From positions 47,401 to 111,400 of IMG/VR virus record IMGVR_UViG_3300021079_000001: DNA of 64,000 bases. One strand, 5' to 3'. The translations under genes and the position numbers were made by a program. Numbering within the stretch: position 1 is the first letter of the stretch; each line of letters opens with the position of its first letter. A model generated the notes under the pieces. It was not told where the DNA came from. It ran no database searches and was given only the letters and a program-made list of their open reading frames with translations. This DNA is from a virus. Positions 36,943-53,825 of the stretch are shown piece after piece.

Positions 36943-36949
36943 AACTTGT

Positions 36950-37636: not shown

Positions 37637-37741
37637 AACAAAAATTTGGCCTGTAGAACTTTCACTGCGGTAACAGATCCAGCTCAACAGGCCATGAATT
37701 TCTTTGTATAGTTGTTACCGCAACTTATCTATACAAAGGTA
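37637..37741 (-). promoter_or_regulatory. Promoter + kissing-loop leader A
   Basis: TACCTTTG; AGTTG-CGGTAA-CAACT; long hairpin TGGCCTGT..TTACCG..ACAGGCCA. Confidence 0.7.
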
Positions 37742-37752
37742 CTAACTTTTCC

Positions 37753-38886
37753 TTAGTTTTTACTAATTATCTTATCGAAACTTTTCATTTTCGGGAGAAT
37801 TTCAAATGCATCTGATTCTATCTCGAATTGCATATCAGGACTCATTTTCTGACTTTCACGGGTAATTGCATTATATACACCAAACGCACTATTATCCCCA
37901 TCTTTCAGAAAATAACGAAGTATATTCTGTCGATATTGCTCTGGTATATTTATTGCATTTGACACATTCTCGATAATAGCTACCTCATTTTCAATCAATA
38001 TATCTTTTGCCCTCTGTAGTTTTGTAGTAAGTTGCCCCAAATATTCTTTGCTCAGATAAAGTTTTACACTATCATGGATTTGTGACATTATTAATTCATA
38101 ATTCTTATTGATAGTATTACCAGACCATTCTACTATACCGTCATTCATTACTCCACCTAGATGGACTTTACGGAATCTAGCCATTCTATCGTGCATTCCA
38201 TTCTTACATTTCAGTATTTGAGCACGAGCTGATATTTCAAAACCTGAAAGACCCACCTCACTATTACTGATTACCAGTCCTGATATGATACCATTACCAG
38301 TAACTGCATTTGCTCTATCTGCCAGATATCCATCCAATAACTCCGTTGCTTCTATATGTATCTGTGGTGCCACTACGTGGAGATACATTCTCTTATCTGT
38401 AACTTCTGCTTTCACTATTTCCACGTCTATACCTGCATTCCTGATTGCTTCCAGTGCTGCTATCAGTACATCATAGTTGTCCAGTATATTGTATTTGTTA
38501 CTCAACATTGCTCTACATATGTTCTCTGTTCCCTCTTCTCCATAGTTGAATGTCCGTAACAAGTACTTGGTCTGTTCCTTCTTGCTCAACCACATATTGA
38601 TATTACTGGCCAGTAGTTCTGGGTATGTAGTTCTCAACTTTCTATAGTACGCTGCTGGTATTTCTAACTTCTGTCCTATCTGGTCATGTGCCAGGTCTGA
38701 TATACTATATTCACTATCCAATACATGTAGCAGACCACTAACTGCATCATATCGTATATGTCCAGATGGTACTACTAGATCTTGTTTCACTTTCTTTTGT
38801 TTCTCCAATACTTCTACCAGACCCTGCAATGGAGACCTGTCTTGTCTATCCAGTATTTCCTGTGCTCGTTCTATTGCTGTATTCAT
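37753..38886 (-). CDS. DUF932-like protein
   Basis: AHDQIG..IP..YY, RAMLSNKY..DNYD, ISNSEVG, CKNG, H.G; start moved to MNTAIE. Confidence 0.75.
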   Translation of the reverse strand: MNTAIERAQEILDRQDRSPLQGLVEVLEKQKKVKQDLVVPSGHIRYDAVSGLLHVLDSEYSISDLAHDQIGQKLEIPAAYYRKLRTTYPELLASNINMWLSKKEQTKYLLRTFNYGEEGTENICRAMLSNKYNILDNYDVLIAALEAIRNAGIDVEIVKAEVTDKRMYLHVVAPQIHIEATELLDGYLADRANAVTGNGIISGLVISNSEVGLSGFEISARAQILKCKNGMHDRMARFRKVHLGGVMNDGIVEWSGNTINKNYELIMSQIHDSVKLYLSKEYLGQLTTKLQRAKDILIENEVAIIENVSNAINIPEQYRQNILRYFLKDGDNSAFGVYNAITRESQKMSPDMQFEIESDAFEILPKMKSFDKIISKN

Positions 38887-38911
38887 TGTTGTTCGCTTTG
38901 AGTATTGTGAC

Positions 38912-39034
38912 CTATTCTTGTTCATGGTGATTCTCTCTATATTGTTCTATAAACTCTTCCTTTGCTTGTTTCAGGCCATCTGCTATAACTTCTCTATACC
39001 AGGTACCTGATTTCTCTGCATGTTCTTGTGTCAT
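38912..39034 (-). pseudogene. Displaced 3' fragment of gene 39800-39985
   Basis: MTQEHAEKSGTWYREVIADGLKQAKEEFIEQYRENHHEQE aligns ungapped, 19/39 identical, to that gene's C-terminus. Confidence 0.75.
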
Positions 39035-39657
39035 ATTTCATTGTCTTTTATGTGTTTCCAAGTTCTGTTATATAGTATACAATCCAATGTAGGTTTCTTT
39101 ATATTGTATACTTTCATTATTTCCATTCTATTTTTTCCTTCTTTGTGCATTTTTCTCATTCCTATTACATCACGATCTGTCCATATAGATGTAGCTGACT
39201 TTTCTCCTCTGGGTCTATTGCTATAGTTTCGAAATGGAAATGTCCTACAGGCATGCTGCATATTTTCAGAATGTGTACACCACTCCAGATTCTCTACACG
39301 ATTATTGTCTCTTACCTTATCTATGTGATTGATTTCTGGTTTGTTCTCCGGATTCGGTATAAATGCTATAGCAACAAGTCTATGTACTCTATAATTTGAC
39401 TGCTTATCGTTTTTCGTTAGTGGTAGATACTTATATCCATCTGCATCTATAAGACGTAATAATCTACCTTCTCTTATATGTATGAGAGGCTTGTCAGGAT
39501 TCCATCTATTTCGTCTTGTTACAGTTCTGGTTAGTGACCTAACTCTACCTTGATTGGATACTTCATAGAATTTCTCATATCCAGTTACCGGTTTCCATAT
39601 TTCAACAGCATCGGAGACTGTATTCATCTCTCCGTTTTCTATTCTGCAATTTTCCAT
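39031..39657 (-). CDS. NUMOD4-HNH homing endonuclease
   Basis: EIWKPVTGYE..YEVSNQGRVRS; VHRLVA..INHID..NN...NLEWCT..EN..H. Confidence 0.92.
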   Translation of the reverse strand: MENCRIENGEMNTVSDAVEIWKPVTGYEKFYEVSNQGRVRSLTRTVTRRNRWNPDKPLIHIREGRLLRLIDADGYKYLPLTKNDKQSNYRVHRLVAIAFIPNPENKPEINHIDKVRDNNRVENLEWCTHSENMQHACRTFPFRNYSNRPRGEKSATSIWTDRDVIGMRKMHKEGKNRMEIMKVYNIKKPTLDCILYNRTWKHIKDNEI

Positions 39658-39792
39658 AACGTAACATGCACTACATACACAGAAGGCTCATCACCGATAC
39701 CATAGAGGTATGATGCATCTGTGCTGTAGTGCGTATTGTTGAATGGTTATTGACTATGTACATGGTATTCGGTAATGAGCAGTACGAAGGTA
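39658..39792 (-). promoter_or_regulatory. Promoter + structured leader B
   Basis: TACCTTCG; leader 39762-80 complementary to 39686-703 in hairpin 39668-39732. Confidence 0.65.
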
Positions 39793-39799
39793 CGAAATT

Positions 39800-39985
39800 C
39801 TATTCAGATTCTATATGATTTTCATGGTAGATTTCTATGAATTTATCCTTTGCAGATTTGTAATCATCGGCTTCTATTACTCTCCAATATCCCCCAGAAT
39901 CTTTTGCTTGCTCTTCTGAATTGTAGGTCACAACTTTCCCCTGATATCTGTTGTAGCCTAATATGTAGTTCTTTGTTTCTTTCAT
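39800..39985 (-). CDS. Small hypothetical protein (HEG target)
   Basis: C-terminus duplicated beyond the HNH gene. Confidence 0.65.
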   Translation of the reverse strand: MKETKNYILGYNRYQGKVVTYNSEEQAKDSGGYWRVIEADDYKSAKDKFIEIYHENHIESE

Positions 39986-39992
39986 TGTGTAT

Positions 39993-41006
39993 CTATATTA
40001 TCTGTTTGTTCTTGAAGTGCTCTACGATCTGTTCCTTCATACCAGCTGCATACATCTCTGCCCAGTCCTTGTAGGGGCTGTAGTTGTCTGGTACATTCAC
40101 ATGTCTCATCCATGGGTGTTTCTCATTGACTCTTCTGGATGCCTGTTTCCCCGGACTATCACTATCATATGATATCCACACCTGTCTACCCTGTAGTATC
40201 TGTAGTAGATCATCTGTCCATGCACTAATGGATTCATTCTGCACTGATATGAGCCCTATAGTATCTGGTAGTATCTGCTCGAGAGTACATCTATCCTTGC
40301 GGCTTTTGCATACAACTACCTTCTCATGACCATTCAATCTGTCTAGCCCTTCTACAACTCGTGTACTGATATTACTTGCTGGCCATTTTTCTCCCTTTCC
40401 TCTCATTGGATAGTACAGCTTGAACTTATCCTCATCTGGTGTACTACCTGGATATCTATAGCAATAGCACAACTCTCCATCATATATAGGTTGCCGTACT
40501 CTATTCAGGTACCATTCTCGAACTGGATATATCTGTTCTCTATCCAGTTGCTCTCTATTGATACCAAACTGCTGCCAGTATCCGAGTGTTCTATCAGACC
40601 ACCTGACAGCAGTAACTTGTATCAGTGCAGCCTTTTTAACAGTGGGAACCCTATCAGAATTGCCTGGAATTACCCTTTTACCCATATCCTGTCCAGATAC
40701 ATCTATCAGGCCCATGTCAGTGGCTATACGAGTGAGAGTCTTGTCATAACTATCCCCATACATCTTCATCACCAGATGGAACACATTACCTCTCTCTTCT
40801 GTTGCAAAATCCTTCCACAATATTGTTCCATCTGATTCGAATATACTCCAACTACCTTCATGTTTATCTGTGCGAATAGGACTTTTCATTTTCCCATGTA
40901 GCACTATATCTGATACGTATTGGGTGTATATCTGCATGACCGATAATCTATCTAGTAACCACTCTGCTGTGATATTCACAACTTCTTTGCGTTTCACCAG
41001 ATTCAT
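39993..41006 (-). CDS. DNA primase (crAss-like, TOPRIM)
   Basis: SPIRTD, WKDFA..GN, CKSRKD, YDSDSPG, KDWAE. Confidence 0.85.
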   Translation of the reverse strand: MNLVKRKEVVNITAEWLLDRLSVMQIYTQYVSDIVLHGKMKSPIRTDKHEGSWSIFESDGTILWKDFATEERGNVFHLVMKMYGDSYDKTLTRIATDMGLIDVSGQDMGKRVIPGNSDRVPTVKKAALIQVTAVRWSDRTLGYWQQFGINREQLDREQIYPVREWYLNRVRQPIYDGELCYCYRYPGSTPDEDKFKLYYPMRGKGEKWPASNISTRVVEGLDRLNGHEKVVVCKSRKDRCTLEQILPDTIGLISVQNESISAWTDDLLQILQGRQVWISYDSDSPGKQASRRVNEKHPWMRHVNVPDNYSPYKDWAEMYAAGMKEQIVEHFKNKQII

Positions 41007-41029
41007 ATCATCAGTTTGTAACTTGTTAC

Positions 41030-41284
41030 CTATTCTTTTCTGCGAAATTCATCTATCAGTATCATATATGAGCTATACAGGTTGAACATCAGTGTACTCC
41101 ATCTGTCTCTGATCTCTTTCACTATTGTTCTCTCACCTGTTATTGGGTCTACTGCCCATCCAATCTGATATAGATCTTGCTCTGGTATTCCATTTGTTTC
41201 TTTCTTCCAATCCTCAGTAGCCAAACACTTCGCTAGTCCTTCACAATCAATTTCACTATATTCTACCTGTTGTCCGTTCTCCAT
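41030..41284 (-). CDS. Hypothetical protein
   Basis: ORF in operon. Confidence 0.5.
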   Translation of the reverse strand: MENGQQVEYSEIDCEGLAKCLATEDWKKETNGIPEQDLYQIGWAVDPITGERTIVKEIRDRWSTLMFNLYSSYMILIDEFRRKE

Positions 41285-41307
41285 TCTGTTGTATTTGTTG
41301 TTATCTA

Positions 41308-41994
41308 TTATAGTGCCTGTATTGACTGTATTGCTTCACCCTTGGCCGTATCTATAGCTTTCTGCATCTGGATCAGTATTTCCCTAGCACTCTTGCTAAG
41401 AGCCTCTGGTAGCTCTATATCTGCTATTGCATTATCTACATACTCTATCAGTGTTATTTTCTCTTTCATAGCTGCAACTAGATCCTTTGTATCTACCTTA
41501 CCTGTACTTCTCACTGTAGTAGTACGAGGTGTCCTGGATTTCTTTCCATCTGCTGATAGGGATAATGGTTTTGTTACCGAGTCTATCAGTTGTTGCCTTT
41601 CTGCTATCTGTGTTGTATCTTCTATCATATCTGTTTGTTTGTTGGTTATCTGTTCTGCTATGGTAGTGAGTGTATTAGCTACTTCATTCGGTGTCATTGT
41701 ATCCACACCTATCTGGACATTTGCTGCTATCTGGTCACCTTCTACTGGCGGATTCAATTGTATCCAGTTCTCTATTTGTTCTACTACATAGTCACTTTCA
41801 TCTAGGGTAACTCGTGGATCTTTGTCCAGTGTTTTCTGTATTGTATTTACATCTGCTCCACTATTCCATAATTTCACTATATCTGCTACTACTTCCTTGT
41901 TCAGGTCATCTATATAGAATACTACACTATCATCGCTAATTAGTGATACTGCCTGGTCACCATTCTCGGAAATATACTGCCATTGTTTGTTCAT
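41308..41994 (-). CDS. Hypothetical protein
   Basis: Start moved to MNKQ past RNA rod. Confidence 0.55.
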   Translation of the reverse strand: MNKQWQYISENGDQAVSLISDDSVVFYIDDLNKEVVADIVKLWNSGADVNTIQKTLDKDPRVTLDESDYVVEQIENWIQLNPPVEGDQIAANVQIGVDTMTPNEVANTLTTIAEQITNKQTDMIEDTTQIAERQQLIDSVTKPLSLSADGKKSRTPRTTTVRSTGKVDTKDLVAAMKEKITLIEYVDNAIADIELPEALSKSAREILIQMQKAIDTAKGEAIQSIQAL

Positions 41995-42018
41995 ATCTAT
42001 TCTATTTGTTTGTTTGTC

Positions 42019-42104
42019 AGAGTATATGAGAGTAGTACTGCTCACAGATTCACAATCTATAGATTACTGCCCTGGATCTTGCAATACTACATCTCTTCTA
42101 CTCC
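42019..42104 (-). other. Intergenic RNA rod/hairpin
   Basis: GAGTA..GAGA.GTAGTATTGC pairs with GCAGTACTAC.TCTC..TACTC on minus strand. Confidence 0.5.
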
Positions 42105-42115
42105 TTGGTTGTGAA

Positions 42116-43048
42116 CTAGTAATCTGTATCTGCTATTATATCTGTTGCTGGTATGAAGGTATTGTTAGTTGATTGCTGGAATGTGGCTGCATCAAACTCT
42201 GTCAGTAATCCCATTGTATAACTGCCTTTACAACCATGCTCTACATCTGTAATTTGCTTGTGCCATTTTTCTAGTCCACCTTTCCAATTACCTGTACTAA
42301 CAGCACTATTAACAACCTGCATAGTAGGTGAATAACGGCTACCATCTTTTACCTGCCGACCTAGTATTTCTGGCCAGAATTTCTGTTGGTGTACCAATTG
42401 ACCATCCTTTTCTTTTGTTTGTACATATGCCAGTATCACTATCTCACCTGTTAGAGAATCTTCCTTTGACAGTTTCAACAATGCACGATATTCATCTGTA
42501 ATATACTTATCTACATTGCGAAATAGTTTCTTAGAGTCAAATAGTATATTGGTAGCTGGATCAGAAAACTTCACATTGGATAACCAGGGTTTCAGGAATT
42601 TGTACCAGTCTGCCTCACCAGAGAGCCCTTGCCTAACTATTTTGTCTGCTGTATTCTCCTTGGATTTGAAATCCTGGAAATGTGTGAACCAATCCTGTAG
42701 GTTCTCTAGACTATCTGCACTACCGTTATCTCCAGTCTGAGATACGAACTGCAGTTTTTTCGATGTTGGCCATATCATCAGTTTGTCTGTGATATAGTAT
42801 GGTATACGGAATTTCTGACCAGTGAACTCACTACTAGTAATTTCTACCCATGGTACTATCTGTATCTGTTCATCACCATCTTTCGATTTTCCCTCATACT
42901 CCAATTCCTTCTTCTCTGGATCTACAGTACTATTGTACATTTCTGCAACTGCTGCCCTATCTGGATTAATAGCAATGACCTTTGCCGAGAATATGCCAGT
43001 GAATAATTTACCACCACTTCCTGTATTTGTTTGTTTCACTAATTCCAT
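42116..43048 (-). CDS. Putative single-stranded DNA-binding protein
   Basis: LFTG..KVIAINP N-terminus, acidic/aromatic tail (ADTDY), near Sak4-like ATPase. Confidence 0.55.
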   Translation of the reverse strand: MELVKQTNTGSGGKLFTGIFSAKVIAINPDRAAVAEMYNSTVDPEKKELEYEGKSKDGDEQIQIVPWVEITSSEFTGQKFRIPYYITDKLMIWPTSKKLQFVSQTGDNGSADSLENLQDWFTHFQDFKSKENTADKIVRQGLSGEADWYKFLKPWLSNVKFSDPATNILFDSKKLFRNVDKYITDEYRALLKLSKEDSLTGEIVILAYVQTKEKDGQLVHQQKFWPEILGRQVKDGSRYSPTMQVVNSAVSTGNWKGGLEKWHKQITDVEHGCKGSYTMGLLTEFDAATFQQSTNNTFIPATDIIADTDY

Positions 43049-43071
43049 GTGTCTATTTGTTTTGTTGTTTG

Positions 43072-43257
43072 TTATTTGTAAATTGACTTTTCTATGTGTT
43101 TATCGAATTCTTCTCTGCTAATTACTTTCACTTTGCTATGTTTACATAACCATACTATATATGAGAATACCTCGTCTGTACTGACAGTATCACTCTTTCC
43201 TTTCATTGTATCACGTATCATCTTACCTATATCTGTACGTATTAGTGATTGACTCAT
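43072..43257 (-). CDS. Hypothetical protein
   Basis: ORF in operon. Confidence 0.5.
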   Translation of the reverse strand: MSQSLIRTDIGKMIRDTMKGKSDTVSTDEVFSYIVWLCKHSKVKVISREEFDKHIEKSIYK

Positions 43258-43496
43258 ATGGATTTCATTACTGTTATTATTGAATTTCTGTCTATTTCAT
43301 GTATTTTCACCGTTGCCATCATACTCACGTTGTCATCATATTCACATACTGCTTTACCTGCACATTCTATCACTATACTCTTCCCATATGTACGTAATAG
43401 TAGGGCCAGTGTTTTCGGTGATATTGCATACATATTATCACCTGTTTTGGGTTCTCCTAGCATTTCTTGTATATACTGTTCTGCTGTCTGTATCAT
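43254..43496 (-). CDS. Small protein, paralogue family
   Basis: TAE..YGK.IVIECA..DRNSI. Confidence 0.55.
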   Translation of the reverse strand: MIQTAEQYIQEMLGEPKTGDNMYAISPKTLALLLRTYGKSIVIECAGKAVCEYDDNVSMMATVKIHEIDRNSIITVMKSI

Positions 43497-43714
43497 TGTA
43501 ATTCCTGTTTGAATTTCTCGAATGTATCATAACTATATTCAGCAGTACCATCTTCATCATCTACATATATCATATCTGGCCTAGAGAGTATATGGTCTAT
43601 AACCCCCTTGGCATATTCTCGCATAGCTGCATATACAATACTATCTGTCCATACACCATCTGATTGGTCATGTGCGTATAATAGTCCCATTGCTACTTCT
43701 TTTGCTGTTCTCAT
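43493..43714 (-). CDS. Small protein, paralogue family
   Basis: MRTAKE..MREYAKGVID..KQELQ. Confidence 0.55.
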   Translation of the reverse strand: MRTAKEVAMGLLYAHDQSDGVWTDSIVYAAMREYAKGVIDHILSRPDMIYVDDEDGTAEYSYDTFEKFKQELQ

Positions 43715-43718
43715 ATAT

Positions 43719-44558
43719 CTACTTCTTGTCAGGTGAGATGAAAATTTTGCCCCAGTTTAATGGCCCAGAAAATCCTGTCAAATGTGTAGCACGTACACCA
43801 CCTAATTGTTGGTCATTACCCTTAAATGAAATCATGAATGTACCATCTTCATTCCACACATTAGCAGTTCCGTCCACAAGTCGGGGAAGTATATCGCGCG
43901 TTTTTCCAACCAGGGCTAAATCCTTGATCATTACCTGTTCCTTGTTCTTCTCGGCTATCATCTTATCGGCCACATGGCACACGAATATAGTACATATCTT
44001 TCCCAGATTCTTCAATGCCTCAAATATGTCCAATATAGCAGTCCTACTGTACTGATAGCCAAAACCGTTCGGGAGAGATAATACACTCTGATAATTTGGA
44101 TCAGATGGTGGTAGCATAATTGATTTCTTTGTATTTGGATCTATAACTATCTGCCCTTGGTCATCTGTAACCCGATTGAAATTCTTACCAGCTACACTAT
44201 GCATATATGAAAATGTTCCTACAGCCTCAGCATCAATGTCTAACTGTGAAATAGTATCTATAATTACATAGTCATATGGATATCCTGCTTCTCTGATAGT
44301 CTTTGCTAGTTCTTTTAACCACTTGAATCGGGATACTGGCCCATATGCAGATGGTGGCAGCATTACATTCGCTGTAACAAACTCTGCCCCATCTTCTACA
44401 TCTATCAATAAATGGTTCGGTAATTGACTACATGCAGTTGTCTTACCCGATTTCTCTTTCCCATATATTAGTAGGTTTCTCGGATTCACTGCAGTTGCTT
44501 TTCTTGGTGCTGTAGGTAGAACGATACCTCCTTTCTTTTCTTCTTTGTTTGTTTCCAT
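43719..44558 (-). CDS. Sak4-like AAA ATPase
   Basis: YGKEKSGKTT, LIDVEDG, IIDTIS, FVCH, G.R..HL. Confidence 0.8.
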   Translation of the reverse strand: METNKEEKKGGIVLPTAPRKATAVNPRNLLIYGKEKSGKTTACSQLPNHLLIDVEDGAEFVTANVMLPPSAYGPVSRFKWLKELAKTIREAGYPYDYVIIDTISQLDIDAEAVGTFSYMHSVAGKNFNRVTDDQGQIVIDPNTKKSIMLPPSDPNYQSVLSLPNGFGYQYSRTAILDIFEALKNLGKICTIFVCHVADKMIAEKNKEQVMIKDLALVGKTRDILPRLVDGTANVWNEDGTFMISFKGNDQQLGGVRATHLTGFSGPLNWGKIFISPDKK

Positions 44559-44569
44559 ATGTTGTTTGT

Positions 44570-44776
44570 TTACTTGTTCTTCTTGTCTGTAATGGCTATG
44601 AATGTTTTCCATCGTTCTGCATCTAGCTCATACTCTTCCTGTGCAGCTTTGTATCCGGCTTTCCATGCTCTATATACCTCATTCTCGTTGTACCCATCAG
44701 AGAGTTCGGGAGTCATCCAGTTCTCTGCTTGCTGTATATGAGCCCAACAGGCTGCTTCTATTTCTTGTTCTGTCAT
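44570..44776 (-). CDS. Hypothetical protein
   Basis: AWKAGYKAA motif. Confidence 0.5.
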   Translation of the reverse strand: MTEQEIEAACWAHIQQAENWMTPELSDGYNENEVYRAWKAGYKAAQEEYELDAERWKTFIAITDKKNK

Positions 44777-44778
44777 GG

Positions 44779-44997
44779 TTATTGTAATTCATTTTTCAGT
44801 GTTTCTACTATTTCATCCATATCACTATAGTCCCTATCTGATACTACACTAATAGTTAACCTATCCCGTAGTTCGTCTATAGCTTCTCTGGCATACCGGT
44901 GACATATTTCTGACATCTCAGCATTTCCTATATCTTCCGAATATTTCACATGCATTTCTTTGAACACTTCCTGTGTAATTTCTATCACTGATCTCAT
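44779..44997 (-). CDS. Small protein, paralogue family
   Basis: RYAREAID..LKNELQ. Confidence 0.55.
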   Translation of the reverse strand: MRSVIEITQEVFKEMHVKYSEDIGNAEMSEICHRYAREAIDELRDRLTISVVSDRDYSDMDEIVETLKNELQ

Positions 44998-45218
44998 ATC
45001 TGCTCTGTTTTACTGTCTATGTACTGCTGATACAGTTGCTCCCGAGTGTTAGTTTCTTGTTCGAATGTAGAGCATTTTGTAGTTACCCATTCCAGTACTG
45101 CTATACACTCTTGCCTGGAGTACTTTTCCATATATATTTCAATACTTTCTGTCATTCCATGCTTCTCGGAGATATTCCATAATAGCTTATCCTCTCTTAT
45201 TATCTGTTCTGCTGTCAT
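44994..45218 (-). CDS. Hypothetical protein
   Basis: ATGA overlap with HNH stop (MTAEQII). Confidence 0.55.
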   Translation of the reverse strand: MTAEQIIREDKLLWNISEKHGMTESIEIYMEKYSRQECIAVLEWVTTKCSTFEQETNTREQLYQQYIDSKTEQI

Positions 45219-45979
45219 TCTGTTACTGCTTTTACCTCGTTCATAATACGTTGTCTGGCATTTCTTTTCTTTCTGTAATTGTTTGCACATAATCTACAAT
45301 ATGAGTAGAGACCATCTCCTTTTCTATTTTTTCGACTATGTTTATTGAATTGATCATACAATTTATTTTCACTACACATTCTACATTTTTTGTAGCCTTC
45401 TTTTGGTAAACTGCTTATATAATCTTCATACTCTTTCAACTTTTCAGAGGTCAATACATTCAATCTTGCAAATTCCCCATGGTATTTCAATGCCATTTCA
45501 TTGTATACTACAGCAGCTTCTACTTCTAATTTGCAATTCTTTCTATATGTTACATTATTACAATCTAACTCAGCTACCCAATAACTATATTTTTCACGAT
45601 TCTTTTGTAATGATACACCTTTGTATATGGAAGTAACTTTATCGCTGATTTTTCTTTCACTATTAGCTATATTTTGCCCATTAGTAGCTACTCTCAGATT
45701 ACTTCTCTGATTGTTCAGTGTATTTCTGTCTATATGATCTCCGAATAATTTGGAATCAGTTATAGACAGTATCATTCTATGCATTCGAATAGTTGTATAT
45801 TTTTGTTTACCTTCAAGGTACTCTTTACAGCCACGTCTAGTAACATATATAGCCTCTGTATGATGGTGCTTATAACCACTCCAATTATACTGATTCAACC
45901 ATTCGTAGTCTTCATCATCTACCATTGCATAATTCTCAATAACTGAACCATGTTTTCCACCTAACCATATTTCTTTCAT
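45215..45979 (-). CDS. HNH-AP2 homing endonuclease with C-terminal zinc finger
   Basis: VDDEDY, MHR, DHIDRNTLNNQRSNLR, SIYKGV..AA..YN..A...HGEFA. Confidence 0.92.
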   Translation of the reverse strand: MKEIWLGGKHGSVIENYAMVDDEDYEWLNQYNWSGYKHHHTEAIYVTRRGCKEYLEGKQKYTTIRMHRMILSITDSKLFGDHIDRNTLNNQRSNLRVATNGQNIANSERKISDKVTSIYKGVSLQKNREKYSYWVAELDCNNVTYRKNCKLEVEAAVVYNEMALKYHGEFARLNVLTSEKLKEYEDYISSLPKEGYKKCRMCSENKLYDQFNKHSRKNRKGDGLYSYCRLCANNYRKKRNARQRIMNEVKAVTE

Positions 45980-46088
45980 TCCTATAGACTATTATGGCCT
46001 ACCAGAACTAACTGTATGGTACACAGCTTTGTCCTAATAGGCCAATATCTTGATAACGGGTACCATCCGTTTTGTCTATACAAATGTC
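45980..46088 (-). promoter_or_regulatory. Promoter + kissing-loop leader C
   Basis: GACATTTG; AACGG-ATGGTAC-CCGTT; hairpin TGGCCT..GTACCAT..AGGCCA. Confidence 0.7.
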
Positions 46089-46121
46089 GTACATTTCACT
46101 GGGATTTCCAACTATTTGGTT

Positions 46122-47330: not shown

Positions 47331-47334
47331 AGTT

Positions 47335-47922
47335 CTATTGCTTGTTTGCTAACTTGTTCATTGCTATTTGACGTATTTGCCATACCAGTTGCTCACTATT
47401 CCATTTCTGTATTGTCCGAGGAGCTTCTAATCTACCATCTATCAGTATCTGTAATTCCCGGTAACTGAACATTGGTTTGTTATCCGCTATGTATATATTC
47501 AATACATCAGCATTCTTCCAGTATTGATAATTGTCTACATCGTATGAGATACATTCTGGGCATGGTTCTATGGTTTCTGTTGTCCAGTCATTCACATTCA
47601 GCCTTTCCAACCATATACTGTCTCCCTGATATACTTGTACACCATCCATAGTAGACATCAGCCATTTCTTTTTCTCACTATCATTCCTCGTACCTTCCTG
47701 CTGTAGTATATTGTGTATAGTATCTGCTACTGCCGGTGTCACTATATAGCATACACCATCTATCTGCATATCTACCTTTTCCTGTACTGGTTCTTGTTGC
47801 TGATCCCATAACCCCTGTTCCTGTAGGTACTGTATGATTTCATCTATACATTGTCCATCTGATTTTCTACCATTATCTTGTACTATACTGCGGATAACGG
47901 CTGCTAACTTTGTTGTTTCCAT
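47335..47922 (-). CDS. Hypothetical protein with T.DG...GD domain
   Basis: LMSTMDGVQVYQGD, shared with 53826-54950. Confidence 0.55.
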   Translation of the reverse strand: METTKLAAVIRSIVQDNGRKSDGQCIDEIIQYLQEQGLWDQQQEPVQEKVDMQIDGVCYIVTPAVADTIHNILQQEGTRNDSEKKKWLMSTMDGVQVYQGDSIWLERLNVNDWTTETIEPCPECISYDVDNYQYWKNADVLNIYIADNKPMFSYRELQILIDGRLEAPRTIQKWNSEQLVWQIRQIAMNKLANKQ

Positions 47923-47924
47923 AT

Positions 47925-48482
47925 TTATGCACAGTTGTTATTAGTTTCTGTATATTCTTCCTCTTCTTCAGTACCTATCATAGCCTCATAACGGGCCTGT
48001 CTGATCCACACTTCGAGACTTGGAAGGTACTGCATACCATTATTACCACTCTCATAGCTCTCTTCCTTGACCATCTGTATCTGTTTCCTTACTGCTCCTA
48101 GTATCTGGTCATGTGTTACACTACCTACAGCTACTGCTTTTAGATATAACATCTCACACACTTGGTAGTTAGCACGTAACACTCTAGAACTTTTCCAACT
48201 TATTCCTCTGTAGGAAAATGATGCACTAGATGGATATGCATCCCAAATGGTTTGAAATTTACTATCTACTACTATTGGTTTCTTTTTCTCTTTGACTGTA
48301 CCTGTATCTACCAGATATTCATCTAATTTCAAACTCATCAATATACCACTAATAGTACCTACGGTAACTGCTCTGGTTGTTTTTCCATTGACCAATGTAG
48401 TTACATCCAGAGAACCTTCATTCTTCAATTTCTCTGCTATATATTGCATCAATTTGGCAAAATCACTATTTGTTATTTGCAT
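47925..48482 (-). CDS. Replication initiator/helicase-loader-like protein
   Basis: FQTIWDAYP and ..SLEVWI.Q.RYE motifs; upstream of helicase. Confidence 0.55.
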   Translation of the reverse strand: MQITNSDFAKLMQYIAEKLKNEGSLDVTTLVNGKTTRAVTVGTISGILMSLKLDEYLVDTGTVKEKKKPIVVDSKFQTIWDAYPSSASFSYRGISWKSSRVLRANYQVCEMLYLKAVAVGSVTHDQILGAVRKQIQMVKEESYESGNNGMQYLPSLEVWIRQARYEAMIGTEEEEEYTETNNNCA

Positions 48483-48798
48483 CTGTAATTTGATTTGTTG
48501 TAGAAGAAATTGGGTACACAATGTACATAATTTCTCCCACAATTGCTAGTAAATTATTGCATATTTTTCACTATTATCTGAACCATAAATACCTAATCAG
48601 TGCTATACCAGTACATATCACTATAGCTAGTACGAACCACCTGGTAAATGGGTCTCTATTGTCTTCATCTGTTGTACTATCGAATGTATTCATTATACCT
48701 AATTGGATGTTTGTTTGATCGAGAGTATGTCTAATTTGTTTGTCATATTGTTTGATTTTGTTGTACTAGAATAATTCAATAATCCCTCGCTCTCTAAT

Positions 48799-50769
48799 CT
48801 AATGGCTCCAACACTTTGCTATTTCTGCTGATGCTCTCAATTTGACTCTGGAGAAGTACAAAGCACCTGCATCTTCCATTGCCTTTACCAGTGCTTCTTT
48901 AACTGTTTGTTCCATATTCTCCGGACATTCTACTAGGTATTGATCATGGATAAACGATACTATGAATACCTTACCTAATAGATTATTCTCCCTTATCCAT
49001 TTGTAGAAGTAGATACCAGCTATCTTGGAAATAGAAGCGGCCTGACCTTGTATAGGGAAGTTATATGCCTTTCTACTTATCTCTCCCTTGATGCTGAAGT
49101 ACTCCCGAACTTTTGTTTTCATTAACTGAAAATGGTAATCTTCTGGATTACTCTCTTTCATCAATCTGTACTTTTCCCAGAAATTCCTATCGAATTCTCT
49201 GTGTAGCTCTCTGTACCTGGTATGGTTGTGGATATATGATTTCCTTTTGTTTCTAGTGTCTATCAGTATATAGCCATCTCTGAGTGCCTGGTCTTCACAT
49301 TTTTTGTAATGACTCTTCAACTCTTTGAATGCCTCGAAGTACAATTGATAGAACCTGTCACCTTCTTCCTGAGATATTTTCAGGTTATCTGCGACTGTCT
49401 TACCTACACCACCGAATGATACAGTAAACCCACCTACTTTCGCATTCTGTCTAAGAGCAGTATGGTGTTCTTTTACTTCTTCCATGGTTTTTCCCTGTAA
49501 TTCTGGATATATCTTCAATGCATTATAGCTATGGAAATCTGTGAATCCATTATCGAAAAACTCTAGTAGTCCTGGCTCCAGTGACTTGTTGGTGAGTACT
49601 ACTATTTCCATACTACTATAATCAGCATCTACTATACTATTACCTGGTGCAGATACGAAACAATTACGGGTCTGTGTATTATTGGGGAGATTCTGCAGAT
49701 TAATGTACTCCTCTTTTGTATCCTTGTTTTTTCCACCACAACTTGTTCTACCAGTATCCATTATCTGAGTGAATTGTGTATACACTCTTCCGGTAGATGG
49801 ATGTATCTGGTTGATAAAACTCTGGCCATATGTGCCTACTACTTTTTGTAGTTCTTTGTAGTGCAGATAGTCTTTGATAAATGGAAATTGTTCCTGATAT
49901 TTCTCTATGCTTTTGGCACTTGCTGACTGTTTCCTAACCCCTTTTACAGTTTCCCAACAGTCTATACCCAATTCTGTAAATAGCTTGATAACCTGCGCAG
50001 GAGAGTCCCAGTTGATTCTTGTAGTTAGCTCTGGATTGAATAGGTCCATCTGATAATTGATGTACTTCTTCATATCTTGTGAAAATATGAGATTATCCAT
50101 TAACTTTCTGGCATTTTGGAGCAACTGCTTATCCTTTTCCATCTTTAACTTCCATGCATCTGTATCTAACCGAATACCACAGAACTCTATATATGCTAAT
50201 ACCAGTACATAGTCATTCTCCAGATTGATGCATTTTACAAGGTCTTTCTCGTATGCTTCTATCAGTTGATTTTTCCGTAATGCATGTAGATACTTCACAT
50301 CATCTGCAGCGTACTGAATCACTTCTCCCTGTACAGCTTTATCTACTATACCTTTTCTCACTGATTTATCCAGGTCTACATCTAGCCTTTTCTTGGCTAC
50401 AATGTTCAATGCCTTTCTATGATATGCATCCCCACAGTACATGACACACTCTGCTAGGAATGTATCATATACTTTTGTGGGGAATATACCCGCCTTGTAT
50501 AAGAACTTCACATCGAACTTCATGTTGTGAGCTATGAGCCCCTTTGTCTCTAACAGTAGCTTGAATGACTGCAGATGTACTGGATGGATTACAAACTGAT
50601 TATCGGCATCTCCTAACTGGAAACATTTGATATCATTGTCCATAAAGTGGAGTCCATTTGTCTCTGTATCAATAGCTATCCATTCATGATCCTGTAAGTA
50701 ATCTATACAGCTGTTCACATTACACTGCAGGAACTGTCCATCTGTAAATCCAATTACATATATACTCAT
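48799..50769 (-). CDS. polA: DNA polymerase family A with 3'-5' exonuclease
   Basis: DTET, HNMKFD, YAADD; TGR.S, NLQNLP, DYSSME, R..AK, NFPIQG, IHD. Confidence 0.95.
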   Translation of the reverse strand: MSIYVIGFTDGQFLQCNVNSCIDYLQDHEWIAIDTETNGLHFMDNDIKCFQLGDADNQFVIHPVHLQSFKLLLETKGLIAHNMKFDVKFLYKAGIFPTKVYDTFLAECVMYCGDAYHRKALNIVAKKRLDVDLDKSVRKGIVDKAVQGEVIQYAADDVKYLHALRKNQLIEAYEKDLVKCINLENDYVLVLAYIEFCGIRLDTDAWKLKMEKDKQLLQNARKLMDNLIFSQDMKKYINYQMDLFNPELTTRINWDSPAQVIKLFTELGIDCWETVKGVRKQSASAKSIEKYQEQFPFIKDYLHYKELQKVVGTYGQSFINQIHPSTGRVYTQFTQIMDTGRTSCGGKNKDTKEEYINLQNLPNNTQTRNCFVSAPGNSIVDADYSSMEIVVLTNKSLEPGLLEFFDNGFTDFHSYNALKIYPELQGKTMEEVKEHHTALRQNAKVGGFTVSFGGVGKTVADNLKISQEEGDRFYQLYFEAFKELKSHYKKCEDQALRDGYILIDTRNKRKSYIHNHTRYRELHREFDRNFWEKYRLMKESNPEDYHFQLMKTKVREYFSIKGEISRKAYNFPIQGQAASISKIAGIYFYKWIRENNLLGKVFIVSFIHDQYLVECPENMEQTVKEALVKAMEDAGALYFSRVKLRASAEIAKCWSH

Positions 50770-50793
50770 TCTATTATCTGTTTTATTTGTATA

Positions 50794-51102
50794 TTATCCG
50801 TTCAACTCTTGTTGTAATGTTATTATCTTTTCCTGGGTATTTGCATTGCTCTTTTTCAGGTACTCCAATTGTTCTGCTATTTTCACCTTTTTCAACACTT
50901 CTGCGTCTTCTATTGTGAATACTATATAATCTCCATACCCTACTTCTTTCCACAGTCCTTTATCACCCATATAGAAAGTAGCAAGTACTTCTCCACCATA
51001 TGACCCCTCTTTCTGCACCTGGAATGCTGTTGTTTCCTTGATAGCTTCATATGTTACATACCATGCTTGTTTTACTTCGATATTAGTTGTTTGATTTTCC
51101 AT
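50794..51102 (-). CDS. Hypothetical protein
   Basis: ORF with coiled C-terminus. Confidence 0.5.
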   Translation of the reverse strand: MENQTTNIEVKQAWYVTYEAIKETTAFQVQKEGSYGGEVLATFYMGDKGLWKEVGYGDYIVFTIEDAEVLKKVKIAEQLEYLKKSNANTQEKIITLQQELNG

Positions 51103-51103
51103 A

Positions 51104-51295
51104 TTATTGTTTGTTTGCTTGTTGATTAGTTATTTGTTCTTTATTTATTTTCCTATTCTTACTTACTGCTCGTACACAATAGAGTATAGTATTACCTATT
51201 GATTCCAGTATACAACTAACTAGTAGTATCACAAATGCCATACAGCATATGGTCATTGCCCAATGGTCTGACATTGTTTGTAGTGCTTCTTTCAT
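51104..51295 (-). CDS. Small membrane protein
   Basis: TM helix. Confidence 0.45.
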   Translation of the reverse strand: MKEALQTMSDHWAMTICCMAFVILLVSCILESIGNTILYCVRAVSKNRKINKEQITNQQANKQ

Positions 51296-51298
51296 AAA

Positions 51299-51490
51299 CT
51301 ATTCTTTTATTGCTTGTGCTGGTATGATTTCTACACAATCTACCCAGTTTTTTCCTCCTATTTGGACGGTTGGATGCTGCCTGGTTTCTACTGCCCCAGA
51401 GAATAGGGACAGTAACATGAGCTTCTCTATTTCTGTTTCCGGGGATACATACATAGTTGTAGATCCATTTTGTGTCATGATTATTTTCAT
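51299..51490 (-). CDS. Hypothetical protein
   Basis: ORF in operon. Confidence 0.5.
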   Translation of the reverse strand: MKIIMTQNGSTTMYVSPETEIEKLMLLSLFSGAVETRQHPTVQIGGKNWVDCVEIIPAQAIKE

Positions 51491-51624
51491 CGTATATGTT
51501 GTTTGATACAGTTTCTAATTGGATATATTATACTACGAAATAGCCCTCCATCATATCCGAAATAAAGTATCAGATGCAATATACATATACCAAATAATAT
51601 TGCTGTGATTATATCTTTCATTGT

Positions 51625-51807
51625 TTATTTGATTTTCATTCCTCCGAGATCCATTTCAAAATCTTCTGCATCTAACCCCGTATCATCTGGTGCATTGTAT
51701 GGTAATTCGCCTATTTGTCCAATATAGTGTTTATACCCACTAGTAGATCTATTCCTATCATTATCTAGTATTTTAACTTTTTTGCCTATTATTTTTTCTC
51801 TATTCAT
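51625..51807 (-). CDS. Hypothetical protein
   Basis: GKKVKI..YIGQIG SH3-like start, possibly truncated. Confidence 0.4.
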   Translation of the reverse strand: MNREKIIGKKVKILDNDRNRSTSGYKHYIGQIGELPYNAPDDTGLDAEDFEMDLGGMKIK

Positions 51808-51878
51808 ATATTTGATTATTGCAGTAGTCTATCTGAACTGTGTCTATCAGTCAATGATATTATACTGGTGTGAGTTGA

Positions 51879-52205
51879 TTATTTGAATTCTTTATCATTT
51901 ACTAATACCCGCACACCCTTGGAGAACATCAGATTATCTATCAGTTTACCACTTCTCTGATAATTGTCCATCAGTTGAATCTGGGCTTGTTCTCTCATCT
52001 GTTTTCTGATACCTGCTATTTCAGCTAGTATCTGTTGTTTCCGTTGTTCGCTATAATTCCAGTTCAATCGGTTACCTTGTATATAATTAGCTACTACATC
52101 TGCAGTTGCTTTCTTGTGCTCTGGCACATGTGCTTGGACAGTTGACATATCTAATGTACTGCCTGCCAGTATCAATACTGCACCTAATTTGGTTGATTGT
52201 TTCAT
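51879..52205 (-). CDS. Hypothetical protein
   Basis: A/C-rich leader. Confidence 0.55.
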   Translation of the reverse strand: MKQSTKLGAVLILAGSTLDMSTVQAHVPEHKKATADVVANYIQGNRLNWNYSEQRKQQILAEIAGIRKQMREQAQIQLMDNYQRSGKLIDNLMFSKGVRVLVNDKEFK

Positions 52206-52243
52206 TTGATTTGATTGTTTGTATTGTGTGAATTAAATTGTTG

Positions 52244-52645
52244 CTATTTATCTAGTGGATTACCATATATACCATTCATGAAATCTTCATCATGTTCTTC
52301 TACCCATTCCCGGTATCCTTTGTGTATATAACTACTTTTGTCTATTGGCCATGTTTTCTCTACATGTGGACGTTCTACCTCTTCATGTACTTCATGTATA
52401 TGGCATTCTATCTCTTGCTGTAGTGCGTAATATTTGTTCATCCATTCTTTACCTTTTCTAAGAGTATTATCTATATCTATACGCAATTTCCATTCTGAGT
52501 CTGATAATCTCTCTACTTCTTCTATATGTCTCTGTAACATTTCTTTGTATCTATTCTCAGCTCTCCAATACCCAATTATATATGAGAGACCTATCAGTAT
52601 ACCTGCTACTATTGTACTCAATATGCTTACCTGTTCTGTTGTCAT
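52244..52645 (-). CDS. Membrane-anchored coiled-coil protein
   Basis: N-terminal TM. Confidence 0.55.
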   Translation of the reverse strand: MTTEQVSILSTIVAGILIGLSYIIGYWRAENRYKEMLQRHIEEVERLSDSEWKLRIDIDNTLRKGKEWMNKYYALQQEIECHIHEVHEEVERPHVEKTWPIDKSSYIHKGYREWVEEHDEDFMNGIYGNPLDK

Positions 52646-52851
52646 ATAATTCGTTTGTTGTGTAGTTCCTGTAATAGTTCTATCTTGGCCCCATATACTG
52701 TCCTGGTATGCTGTTCTATGGCAGATGGGTCTATATTACCCATTACCTTTTCTATACCTGCTACTGTCTCTCCATTTCCCCCTATGAGGTGCGCATACTT
52801 CCATAACCAGAGTGGAAGAATATATTCATCTGTCTGTGTATCTGTTGTCAT
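52642..52851 (-). CDS. Hypothetical protein
   Basis: ORF in operon. Confidence 0.5.
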   Translation of the reverse strand: MTTDTQTDEYILPLWLWKYAHLIGGNGETVAGIEKVMGNIDPSAIEQHTRTVYGAKIELLQELHNKRII

Positions 52852-52852
52852 A

Positions 52853-53035
52853 TTATTGCTCTTTATTTTTCTGGTTCATGTATTGTTGTGTCTTCTTAAC
52901 TACTATTGGTGGGCTACTTTCATCTATAGGGTACTGGTATGCTTTTTTCTTCGGTTTTCCTGGCATGAATGTATCTTTCCCTTTCCTTGGATTATTGGGG
53001 TAATTGCTGCTGATATCGTCTGTATATTTTGCCAT
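52853..53035 (-). CDS. Small basic protein
   Basis: ORF in operon. Confidence 0.45.
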   Translation of the reverse strand: MAKYTDDISSNYPNNPRKGKDTFMPGKPKKKAYQYPIDESSPPIVVKKTQQYMNQKNKEQ

Positions 53036-53480
53036 AGAGTTGTATTATTTCTGTGATATACTTTTCGTGTAATTCTCTTGTATATAATAACATACCTGCT
53101 TTTGTGATATACATCTTGTATGGCTGACTATACTTCAGGTATCGATGTATCAATCCATGATCTTTTGAAGATAGTTCTATAGTGTCTTTCCAATGTTCCT
53201 CATTATATGACCAGTGATGCATTATATTACCAGGAGATTTCTTTATATGACCTGCTGCATAATGGGCTCCTTTCTTTTCTGGATATTTTGCATAGAACTC
53301 GGTTTTCAGTTCTTGCTTCCTCTTTTTCTCCGGTTTTTTCATTGAGACATTACCTGTATGATATTTGTCCACCCTTTCCTGCTTTGTACATTCTTTACAA
53401 CGTGGTCTACATTTACCAGATGGTTTCTTATAGAACTCATCATTTTCCTTTTCTACTTTACATTTTGCACAGACTTTCAT
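52992..53480 (-). CDS. Zinc-finger HNH-like endonuclease
   Basis: CAKC..EFY..CKEC; HHWSY....L...H..IH. Confidence 0.75.
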   Translation of the reverse strand: MKVCAKCKVEKENDEFYKKPSGKCRPRCKECTKQERVDKYHTGNVSMKKPEKKRKQELKTEFYAKYPEKKGAHYAAGHIKKSPGNIMHHWSYNEEHWKDTIELSSKDHGLIHRYLKYSQPYKMYITKAGMLLYTRELHEKYITEIIQLYGKIYRRYQQQLPQ

Positions 53481-53584
53481 ATAATGAACAATCCCAGTGA
53501 GAGCTTTGGACTGCCATCCTCGGCCCTTACTGGGATATCAATATCTATGATCACTGTGGCAGCAGTAGTATCTTCACAAATCTA
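53481..53584 (-). promoter_or_regulatory. Promoter + kissing-loop leader D
   Basis: TAGATTTG; ACTG-CTGCCA-CAGT; hairpin ATCCCAGT..GGA-TGGCAG-TCC..ACTGGGAT. Confidence 0.7.
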
Positions 53585-53825
53585 CTACCTATATTCGATA
53601 TTTTCAACAGTCTATATAACATATTTGTTTCACTAATCTATCCATTGCCACCCAGCAGTAGTTGGAGAGATGGTCTGTACTATTTCCTGTATCTGTTCTT
53701 GCATATGGTTGGTTTGTAATTGGTTCAACTAATATTTTACTGATATACAGATACCAGAGCTATTACACTCCAGTATCTATTCTATCAGCTTATTCACACA
53801 CATACACGGTCAATCAAACCTGTAA

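Follow-up and report, generated by a model that had tools for sequence, protein, structure and literature searches.

The expression of a homing endonuclease must allow the gene to spread and yet spare the carrier phage, a balance that to our knowledge is known only for a few genes of T-even phages. Homing-endonuclease genes of these phages are held down by promoter-plus-hairpin arrangements (PMC2988022): in the case of I-TevI, I-TevII, I-TevIII, segB and mobE of Aeh1, a single hairpin sequesters the Shine-Dalgarno sequence, and does so on read-through RNA only (PMC2988022). A hairpin of very high stability has been described for seg43(25) of Aeromonas phage 25; it lies immediately upstream of the ribosome binding site and does not cover it (PMC2988022). 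The leaders analysed here, three intergenic regions (E1, E2 and E3) of ~105 bases each from the 111.4-kb genome of a lake-water crAss-like phage, stand directly 5' of three unrelated homing-endonuclease genes. They resemble the T-even systems in placing structured RNA directly 5' of the nuclease ORF and beside a late or host-type promoter (putative in our case), in serving both GIY-YIG and HNH genes and in their presumed purpose, namely that a selfish nuclease is expressed at a low level or late. They differ in that two hairpins are joined by a covarying loop-loop helix, no Shine-Dalgarno sequence is involved, no consistent difference separates read-through RNA from RNA with its own start, and one homologous module is common to several nuclease families and phages. 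With seg43(25) they share a stable hairpin that stops just short of the initiation region of a free-standing nuclease gene, the function being putative in both, whereas seg43(25) is without a second hairpin, a kissing contact or reported cross-gene conservation.

All genes at these loci lie on the minus strand and the leaders are read on that strand; coordinates refer to the window, the stretch of 64,000 nucleotides that was analysed. E1 (37637-37741), E2 (45980-46088) and E3 (53481-53584) exhibit the same layout ending before a nuclease AUG, as the sequence-only reading had maintained: a TAnnTTTG-type box is followed by a 4-bp hairpin (H1), an A/U-rich spacer of 12-18 nt and a three-part hairpin (H2, with helices P2a, P2b and P2c) whose apical loop L2 is exactly reverse-complementary to L1, the loop of H1, and the AUG is reached after an A/U-rich linker of 11-16 nt. 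In E1, motif search places the promoter-like box (TAnnTTTG, then T-nnn-GAYA) at 37726..37741; H1 occupies 37711..37724 with L1 at 37715-37720 (RNAfold, covariation), and H2 occupies 37648..37693 (RNAfold, complementary-loop search, covariation), being composed of P2a (37687-37693/37648-37654), P2b with its central G.U (37681-37685/37656-37660), a 4x4 internal loop, P2c (37674-37676/37665-37667) and L2 (37668-37673). The linker (37637..37647) reaches the AUG (37634-37636) of HEG-1, a GIY-YIG homing endonuclease of 228 aa with an I-HmuI NUMOD-like part (36950..37636, start at 37636). E2 carries its box, with GA in place of TA and then TTTG-T-nnn-GAYA, at 46073..46088, H1 at 46056..46070 with a 7-nt L1 at 46060-46066 (RNAfold, complementary-loop search), H2 with the same three helices and central P2b G.U at 45996..46043 (L2 at 46016-46022) and a linker at 45980..45995, which is predicted to pair with the box region in read-through RNA; it precedes HEG-2, an HNH endonuclease (AP2-type, phrog_99) of 254 aa (45215..45979, start at 45979). 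In E3 the box (TAnnTTTG-T-nnn-GAYA) lies at 53569..53584, H1 at 53553..53566 (L1 at 53557-53562), H2, again with P2a, P2b with central G.U and P2c, at 53493..53534 (L2 at 53511-53516) and the A/U-rich linker at 53481..53492, before HEG-3 (52992..53480, start at 53480), a protein of 162 aa with a CxxC...CxxC motif and an HNH-like motif; HEG-3 gives a weak endonuclease match and its Atlas model resembles viral HNH clusters (TM 0.61-0.67). The U-rich stretch past H2 is also compatible with a terminator tail. The exact loop complementarity that had been read from the letters (CGGTAA/TTACCG, ATGGTAC/GTACCAT and CTGCCA/TGGCAG) holds over 6, 7 and 6 nt, and the TGGCCT/AGGCCA stem base noted for two elements is that of E1 and E2. 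The supposedly fixed geometry is roughly borne out, with 47/44/46 nt between loop starts and 31/36/30 nt from the end of L2 to the AUG, and the proposed distance from box to L1 came out near, L1 beginning 17-18 nt past the first T of TTTG.

RNAfold predicts both H1 and H2 in E1, E2 and E3, with z = -3.9, -7.3 and -4.0 against dinucleotide shuffles. Pairs of hairpins whose loops are complementary throughout were sought across the entire 111.4-kb genome, which gave 13 matches, compared with ~5 in shuffles; six of them are E1-E3 on both strands and the rest are at chance level. For covariation we aligned five copies, E1, E2 and E3 plus two from a 52-kb phage: 96.7% of the cells pair and 20 of the 25 pairs have changed on both sides, including five of the six kissing pairs, a level reached by none of 500 shuffles, while slid controls collapse. 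The four unpaired cells are loop positions of E2 misplaced by the alignment, as by eye all seven E2 kissing pairs are Watson-Crick. Covariation in all helices and in the kissing helix thus upholds the earlier proposal of a selected RNA structure with a loop-loop tertiary contact; the loop complementarity, whose loss in homologues was to count against that proposal, is retained through compensatory changes over the five copies. The central G.U of P2b, the middle helix, is invariant across the five copies, which identifies the structured strand as the sense RNA. This same feature bears on the explanation that the nested inverted repeats serve as a DNA-level signal (be it as operator, as cruciform or as a site of recombination at the cassette edge): the leader does mark the 5' edge of similarity between cassettes and I-TevI is known to bind an operator overlapping its own promoter (PMC2988022), but the opposite strand would have A.C mismatches in place of the invariant G.U and of the other G.U pairs, the stems differ while the loops stay complementary, unlike in an inverted duplication, and the loop sequences differ in every copy and hence offer no common protein site. 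We regard such a signal as hardly credible.

Fully complementary loop-loop complexes are formed by ColE1 RNA I/RNA II and by TAR-TAR*, as intermolecular antisense contacts controlling replication. The new leaders are similar in that all 6-7 loop nucleotides are in Watson-Crick pairs and the loop sequence is free provided that it remains complementary; here, however, the contact is intramolecular and lies within an mRNA leader. The kissing helices are of uniform strength (-5.6 to -9.2 kcal/mol, 3-4 GC pairs each). As for the suggestion that element-specific loop codes avoid cross-talk, the loops do differ between elements, but those of E1 and E2 can cross-pair at ~ -4.5 kcal/mol, compared with -5.6 and -7.6 for the cognate pairs, so that the data hint only weakly at such avoidance. 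Three-way-junction RNAs organised by loop-loop contacts, such as the purine riboswitch (L2-L3) and the hammerhead (stem I/II loops), likewise hold two adjacent hairpins parallel, and the closing helix of E2, formed by the box region and the region before the AUG, gives the same topology; yet among the leaders neither a junction or core nor the closing helix is conserved, and Rfam models do not match.

RNAs associated with nuclease genes have precedents in the HEARO/IscB omega RNA and in the lariat-capping ribozyme found before I-DirI. The leaders could by analogy be trans-acting or catalytic, whether as a cofactor or guide of the nuclease, as a kissing-complex protein platform or as a ribozyme releasing the nuclease mRNA from an operon transcript by self-cleavage, and both the tight linkage of RNA and nuclease genes and the tandem G.A pairs that the 4x4 internal loop is able to form in three of the five copies could be cited for this. 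Even so, the partner nucleases belong to unrelated families, each with its own DNA-binding domains, and searches of E1 and E2 relaxed to E 10 yielded no match to a ribozyme or omega-RNA model. Moreover, the unpaired nucleotides are not conserved among the copies, leaving no candidate active site or pocket. The self-cleaving families (hammerhead, twister, pistol, hatchet, HDV-like) were rejected on the same grounds, with no Rfam match of E1 or E2 at E 10 and no conserved unpaired core. HEARO resembles the present case in that an HNH nuclease gene of a mobile element has a genetically linked structured RNA, but that RNA is large and guides a RuvC-HNH protein; we obtained no match to it, and the partners in our case are classical protein-guided homing endonucleases. 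We found nothing in support of the RNA cofactor or self-cleavage role that had been raised as an option, and consider any such activity highly improbable.

A covariance model was built from E1 and one copy of the unrelated 52-kb phage. It finds E3 (47.9 bits, E 2e-7) and E2 (25.5 bits, E 0.02), and its only other matches in the window and 12 further loci are weak opposite-strand ones on E1 and on the 52-kb-phage copy (E 0.5-1); when the whole genome was searched with the same model only E1 and E3 scored, E2 lying under the cutoff of that search. The 52-kb phage holds two copies (126.9 and 77.1 bits), before an HNH gene and a GIY-YIG gene; they are 72% alike, yet are followed by different nuclease families. 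We define the family (models R1-R3) by the box, H1, the spacer, a three-part H2 with central G.U, fully complementary L1/L2 and an end 10-16 nt before a nuclease AUG, all of which are present in E1, E2, E3 and both 52-kb-phage copies. Two weak members, L086/L087 (counted once) and L024, score 25-40 bits without the P2b/P2c detail, and the narrow family is thus small, comprising two phages plus these two. Weaker members and analogues stand before other HNH-AP2 genes. A pattern scan of IMG/VR revealed no further copies, and a metagenome scan no family member among the matches listed (80 loci). Rfam 15 gave no match at gathering threshold over the whole window, in agreement with the statement that this is not a named RNA family, and at E up to 10 the E1 and E2 leaders returned only sub-threshold microRNA and frameshift noise; the leader looks undescribed. 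Its association with nuclease genes is exclusive: all five copies and the two weak members end at the AUG of a nuclease ORF, and one leader type does precede unrelated families (GIY-YIG, HNH-AP2 and small HNH-like), as had been claimed. Identity between copies amounts to 44-72% from box to AUG and to 25-42% in the flanks; because similarity ends at the box and at the AUG, the leader is a discrete module. A group I intron with a homing-endonuclease ORF was rejected as the setting, since the upstream gene looks complete at two of the three cassettes (phrog_1362 covered over 4-383 of 391; a DnaB-like protein covered to position 377 of 403), and no intron model had a match in the whole window; the gene upstream of E3 has no family match.

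The TAnnTTTG box is exact in four of the five copies. The claim of a -7 promoter box stands for E1 and E3, while E2 is one base off. The window has fewer sites of the motif than expected (33, compared with 57 +/- 8.5), and the extended box is confined to E1-E3 on the minus strand of the 111-kb genome, with one plus-strand match inside HEG-2 (window position 45604). Elsewhere in the genome, three plus-strand ORF starts are preceded at 15-71 nt by plain TAnnTTTGT boxes. A -33 element was not found by eye. From its sequence, the box is plausibly a promoter of the host (Bacteroidota) type.

Predicted start-site accessibility, a measure that rests on nearest-neighbour folding of weak A-U pairs, places E1 at the 0th percentile (lowest) of 84 genes, E3 at the 5th and E2 at the 43rd, with a neighbouring NUMOD4-HNH gene at the 7th. 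A T4-type control hairpin, in which the start is covered on read-through RNA only, was rejected: the partition function gives an unpaired probability of positions -18..+10 in E2 of 0.38-0.43 in read-through RNA compared with 0.62 in box-initiated RNA, but in the four other copies this value is unchanged or lower, the difference being predicted for E2 alone. The reading that we favour, with middling confidence and on modelled folds, is that of a cis-acting leader which would restrain nuclease expression at the level of translation, each leader forming the 5' portion of a self-contained cassette for the expression of a homing endonuclease. The Bacteroidota TAnnTTTG promoter box would be followed by an RNA leader of ~90 nt, in which the small 5'-proximal H1 and the long H2 would pair through their 6-7 nt loops to give a single compact kissing-loop fold, and the base of this fold, 11-16 nt from the AUG, would sit at the edge of the ribosome landing site. 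In a host that initiates without Shine-Dalgarno pairing, this compact fold together with weak A-U pairing of the linker would keep initiation low, and nuclease synthesis would consequently be sparing, with a late onset being probable in view of the kind of promoter. That the box is an active promoter, that the leader restrains expression and that it does so at translation are the parts that we infer, and this reading gives no reason for a kissing contact over a plain hairpin.

Restraint could also be exerted on transcription, with H2 and its U-rich tail as an intrinsic terminator between box and nuclease ORF. Most transcripts, whether from the box or from upstream genes, would then end as an H1-spacer-H2 RNA of ~85-95 nt and the nuclease would be expressed through read-through only, the kissing contact tuning terminator folding or stabilising the terminated RNA. 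Most copies do have 7-9 U among the 12 nt past H2, the analogues L041, L065, L086 and L024 exhibit a U run directly after the stem and then a Shine-Dalgarno-like GGAG, the GIY-YIG gene of crAss001 likewise lies behind a hairpin and a T10 run (L002), and the T4 mobE and segF terminators lower nuclease transcript levels (PMC2988022). However, while L041, L065 and L086 combine a G+C-rich stem with a U run within 0-2 nt as in an intrinsic terminator, E1, E2 and the G001 HNH copy either lack such a run or have it displaced, two or three A or mixed sequence separating it from the stem. Furthermore, the tail scores low (computed by hand), a consensus terminator scan calls no H2, a strong terminator would exert polarity on the genes that follow in the same-strand replication operon and terminator function is not obviously changed by kissing; attenuation appears fairly unlikely.

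The predicted accessibility of the start sites, lower rather than higher than in other genes, speaks against a positive element. 5'-terminal hairpins are established mRNA stabilisers, as in the ompA and aprE leaders, and H1 and the locked fold might shield the nuclease mRNA from 5'-end-dependent decay and also prevent mispairing of the start region with sequence at the landing site, affording context-independent expression. If transcription starts at the conserved GA ~6 nt past TTTG, H1 would lie 3-8 nt from the 5' end, and the accompaniment of different ORFs at different sites and the uniform strength of the kissing helix would suit such a role, but a plain hairpin would suffice for 5' protection; we consider it unlikely. 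Very doubtful, taken as a whole, is the proposal that the leader is a mobile expression adaptor moving between homing-endonuclease families and unrelated phages, with a sequence-free, strength-tuned kissing helix read by a shape-recognising factor (RNA polymerase, the ribosome or a protein like Rop), which would set the timing of nuclease synthesis or yield a stable small RNA for homing or carrier-genome immunity.

Our findings add a conserved RNA fold, backed by covariation and common to GIY-YIG and HNH genes, which includes a rare intramolecular and fully paired kissing helix, in phages that have Bacteroidota-type boxes and presumed hosts in which translation would start independently of Shine-Dalgarno pairing. 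Judged from sequence, the leader looks like a portable module by which selfish nuclease genes are controlled. Should this action be confirmed, such genes would carry a portable regulatory RNA, which would also provide a compact, sequence-programmable leader for controlling the expression of genes in Bacteroidota, and metagenomes could be screened with it for free-standing homing cassettes.

The three stretches singled out by the sequence-only reading (37637–37741, 45980–46088 and 53481–53584; E1, E2 and E3 hereafter) lie in a part of the window, from about 23.7 to 63 kb, in which all genes are on the minus strand, and they are therefore 5′ leaders on that strand. E1 precedes a GIY-YIG/NUMOD endonuclease gene (36950–37636), E2 an HNH endonuclease gene of the AP2-linked phrog_99 type (45215–45979; HEG-2) and E3 the gene of a 162-aa protein (52992–53480) in which two CxxC pairs accompany an HNH-like motif and whose Atlas model is similar to viral HNH clusters (TM 0.61–0.67). 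The genes upstream of two of these cassettes, encoding a phrog_1362 protein and a DnaB-like helicase, look complete and no intron model matches: we therefore rejected a group I intron reading and regard the nuclease genes as free-standing homing endonuclease genes, not as ORFs of introns. No family match was obtained for the 374-aa gene preceding the E3 cassette. Between this gene and the E3 box lies an unusually long non-coding gap of 241 nt (53585–53825, minus strand) with at least one further inverted repeat near 53740–53770, and 326 nt without a long ORF (36624–36949, minus strand) follow the stop of the GIY-YIG gene. The window itself takes up the right-hand 64 kb of a virus record that is complete at 111.4 kb and bears terminal repeats; the plus strand of the window encodes giant virion proteins of the crAss-like phage type. 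A lake-water DNA metagenome is the sole public holder of the stretch; one lake-water DNA run contains part of it as short low-depth contigs, none of which bridges a cassette. Contigs from a lake-water metagenome run match the E3 nuclease gene (53062–53410) at roughly 93–95% identity with many transitions, and one of them diverges completely left of 53062, so that in a related strain the 3′ end or surroundings of this gene may differ.

Each leader comprises the same parts in identical order: a Bacteroidota -7 promoter-type box (TAnnTTTG, extended by T-nnn-GAYA, with E2 one base off); a hairpin, H1, with a 4-bp stem and a loop (L1) of 6–7 nt; an A/U-rich spacer of 12–18 nt; a second hairpin, H2, of stacked helices P2a (6–7 bp), P2b (5 bp) and P2c (3–4 bp), which are separated by a 1–2 nt bulge and a 3–4 nt symmetric internal loop; and an A/U-rich linker of 11–16 nt reaching the AUG. 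In every copy the loop of H2 (L2) is the exact reverse complement of L1, with the complementarity ending at the loop edges in most, and the spacings between these elements that had been claimed are correct to within a base or two. RNAfold recovers both hairpins in the three window leaders (z-scores of -3.9, -7.3 and -4.0), and when the whole genome was scanned mechanically for hairpin pairs whose loops are fully complementary, E1–E3 were found, the remaining matches being about as numerous as in shuffled sequence. A fourth homing endonuclease gene, of NUMOD4-HNH type (39031–39657), has a leader that is structured differently: two long complementary segment pairs are interleaved as A5′-B5′-A3′-B3′ (39658–39795, minus strand), which allows a pseudoknot with long stems or, instead, two hairpins that exclude each other, the second of which adjoins the AUG (RNAfold z-score -2.3; start-site accessibility ranking at the 7th percentile among genes of the genome). 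In the plus-strand block, downstream of the first giant ORF, a GIY-YIG/HTH gene (10130–11125) with several helix-turn-helix/NUMOD1-like domains overlaps the preceding ORF and is without a kissing-loop leader.

Covariation could be assessed through a complete, unrelated 52-kb IMG/VR phage, which encodes an HNH homologue (43% identity) with the same upstream layout and another loop pair. A first covariance model built from two sequences alone, E1 and this HNH leader, recovered E3 (47.9 bits, E 2e-7) and E2 (25.5 bits, E 0.02). Apart from the copies, it matched the window and the searched loci only weakly, on the opposite strand of two of those same copies (E 0.5–1), and in a whole-genome search E1 and E3 alone scored. 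The 52-kb phage holds a second copy (77 bits), which stands before a GIY-YIG/NUMOD3 gene downstream of the primase-helicase. When the five copies were placed in a model-guided alignment with the kissing helix entered as a pseudoknot, standard pairs occupied 96.7% of cells and both-side changes were found in 20 of 25 pairs, including five of the six kissing pairs; the observed pairing values were reached by none of 500 shuffles, and when the partners were shifted by one to three columns, pairing fell to 32–53%. The unpaired cells are E2 loop positions only, as the alignment misplaces its 7-nt loops; by eye, all seven E2 kissing pairs are Watson-Crick. The central P2b pair is G.U in all five copies; read from the opposite strand, this and the other G.U pairs would become A.C mismatches, which assigns the structure to the sense RNA. 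Furthermore, the H1 and P2c stems are unlike each other within each copy, and hence the loop complementarity is not a by-product of inverted duplication. The kissing-loop observation is thus confirmed, and is in fact stronger than could be known from the window, because independent copies in another phage covary fully in the kissing helix; the further claim of a selected tertiary RNA module in a self-contained nuclease cassette is supported.

Pairwise identity inside the box-to-AUG stretch is 44–72%, with the flanks (60 nt on either side, ahead of the box and beyond the AUG) at a background of 25–42%. The two copies from the 52-kb phage are the most alike of all (72%), yet they precede HNH and GIY-YIG genes respectively, and the GIY-YIG leader E1 was successfully paired with an HNH leader in the first model: such likeness across nuclease types indicates that the leader is not co-evolving with one nuclease family, and it behaves as a unit combined with different ORFs. 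A search with the 390-aa neighbour protein for close relatives of the window's phage that might show nuclease-free alleles found none. Phages related to the 52-kb phage (primase-helicase identity 44%) carry neither leader nor nuclease gene downstream and are too distant for synteny, and so the cassette borders are drawn solely from copy-to-copy comparison.

The box motif TAnnTTTG is clearly rarer than expected on the two strands of the window (33 sites, where dinucleotide shuffles have 57 ± 8.5 and never fewer than 33), as would be the case if the host polymerase reads the motif; the shortage suggests that spurious promoters for the host polymerase are selected against in this phage. Plain TAnnTTTGT boxes occur 15–71 nt upstream of three plus-strand ORF starts elsewhere in the genome, and the extended box with GAYA is found on the minus strand in the three leaders only, with one plus-strand match inside HEG-2. 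Were the conserved GA, about 6 nt past TTTG, the start of transcription, the nuclease mRNA would have H1 at 3–8 nt from its 5′ end.

The narrow leader family is rare. The sequence-only reading had not recognised it as a named RNA family, and it is absent from Rfam, which gave no match at gathering or permissive thresholds. A covariance model of the leader, R2, found no match at E 0.1 in whole-contig scans of 50 further viral contigs and no convincing candidate among 100 loci surrounding related nuclease genes; a degenerate DNA pattern scan of IMG/VR returned 37 stretches, of which the real ones were the two known copies only, the same type of scan over a sample of metagenome contigs gave no member among the 80 loci listed, a result of little weight, and blastn of two leaders against GenBank phages gave chance fragments only. 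A GIY-YIG homologue was found at 56% identity. In crAss-like GenBank phages whose GIY-YIG genes are related (cr1_1, cr125_1, Kolpuevirus), leaders are short or absent. In Bacteroides phage crAss001 a G+C-rich hairpin followed by ten T (about 1385–1425 of locus L002) lies upstream of a GIY-YIG endonuclease gene, about 17 nt before its ATG; it is terminator-like and lacks a kissing partner.

With filters off, R2 aligned at full length to the leaders of HNH-AP2 genes at loci L086/L087 and L024 (25–26 bits, the level at which E2 first surfaced), and in a third model built with these included L087 scored 39.9 bits. A model-free search of 98 nuclease loci for two hairpins with complementary loops gave nine matches within the 120 nt preceding the ORF, where 1.8 would be predicted from the remainder of these loci (Poisson P about 1e-4), with L024, L029, L041, L046, L065 and L086 as the convincing cases. 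These carry a U run directly behind the H2 stem, often followed by a GGAG-type ribosome site, and a promoter-like motif of another type before H1, such as an extended -10; ahead of the L065 analogue the sequence resembles a T7-like promoter, a likeness that other copies in that contig do not bear out. From this excess and these cases it follows that the theme of promoter-like box, H1, kissing H2 and nuclease AUG recurs beyond the narrow family, with which its kinship is putative.

Transcription attenuation, the main rival to a role in restraining nuclease synthesis, would make use of the U-rich tail that follows H2 in nearly all copies, and the broader analogues do have a textbook terminator tail; we nevertheless consider it doubtful, as E1, E2 and one of the two leaders in the 52-kb phage have a displaced U run or none at all and a consensus terminator scan calls none of those copies. 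A protective or insulating 5′ structure appears slightly more doubtful still. Roles as a nuclease cofactor, as a ribozyme or at the DNA level are unlikely, because conservation does not extend to the unpaired nucleotides, and because the partner nucleases, which are unrelated proteins, bring DNA-binding domains of their own.

For cis-acting restraint on nuclease synthesis we see about an even chance, which makes it the likeliest function. The leader is a compact, locked fold with its base 11–16 nt from the AUG, and the predicted accessibility of positions -18 to +10 ranks at the 0th (E1), 5th (E3) and 43rd (E2) percentile among 84 genes of this phage; these ranks are joined by the precedent of T-even nuclease genes, in which promoter-plus-hairpin arrangements, terminators and autorepression keep expression low or delay it (PMC2988022). 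A T4-like two-state switch found no support: in T4 the inhibitory structure is present on the read-through RNA alone, whereas here a difference between read-through and box-initiated RNA is predicted in E2 only. The idea that element-specific loops avoid cross-talk is weakly supported, for those of E1 and E2 can cross-pair at about -4.5 kcal/mol. Kissing helix strength is uniform in all 11 cases examined (-5.6 to -9.2 kcal/mol, with three to four G-C pairs), and the upkeep of such a helix is accounted for by none of these readings. Restraint of nuclease expression, as originally proposed, is plausible, and the leader, no description of which was found in the literature searched, adds a new structural variant to the regulatory leaders known from phage homing-endonuclease genes.
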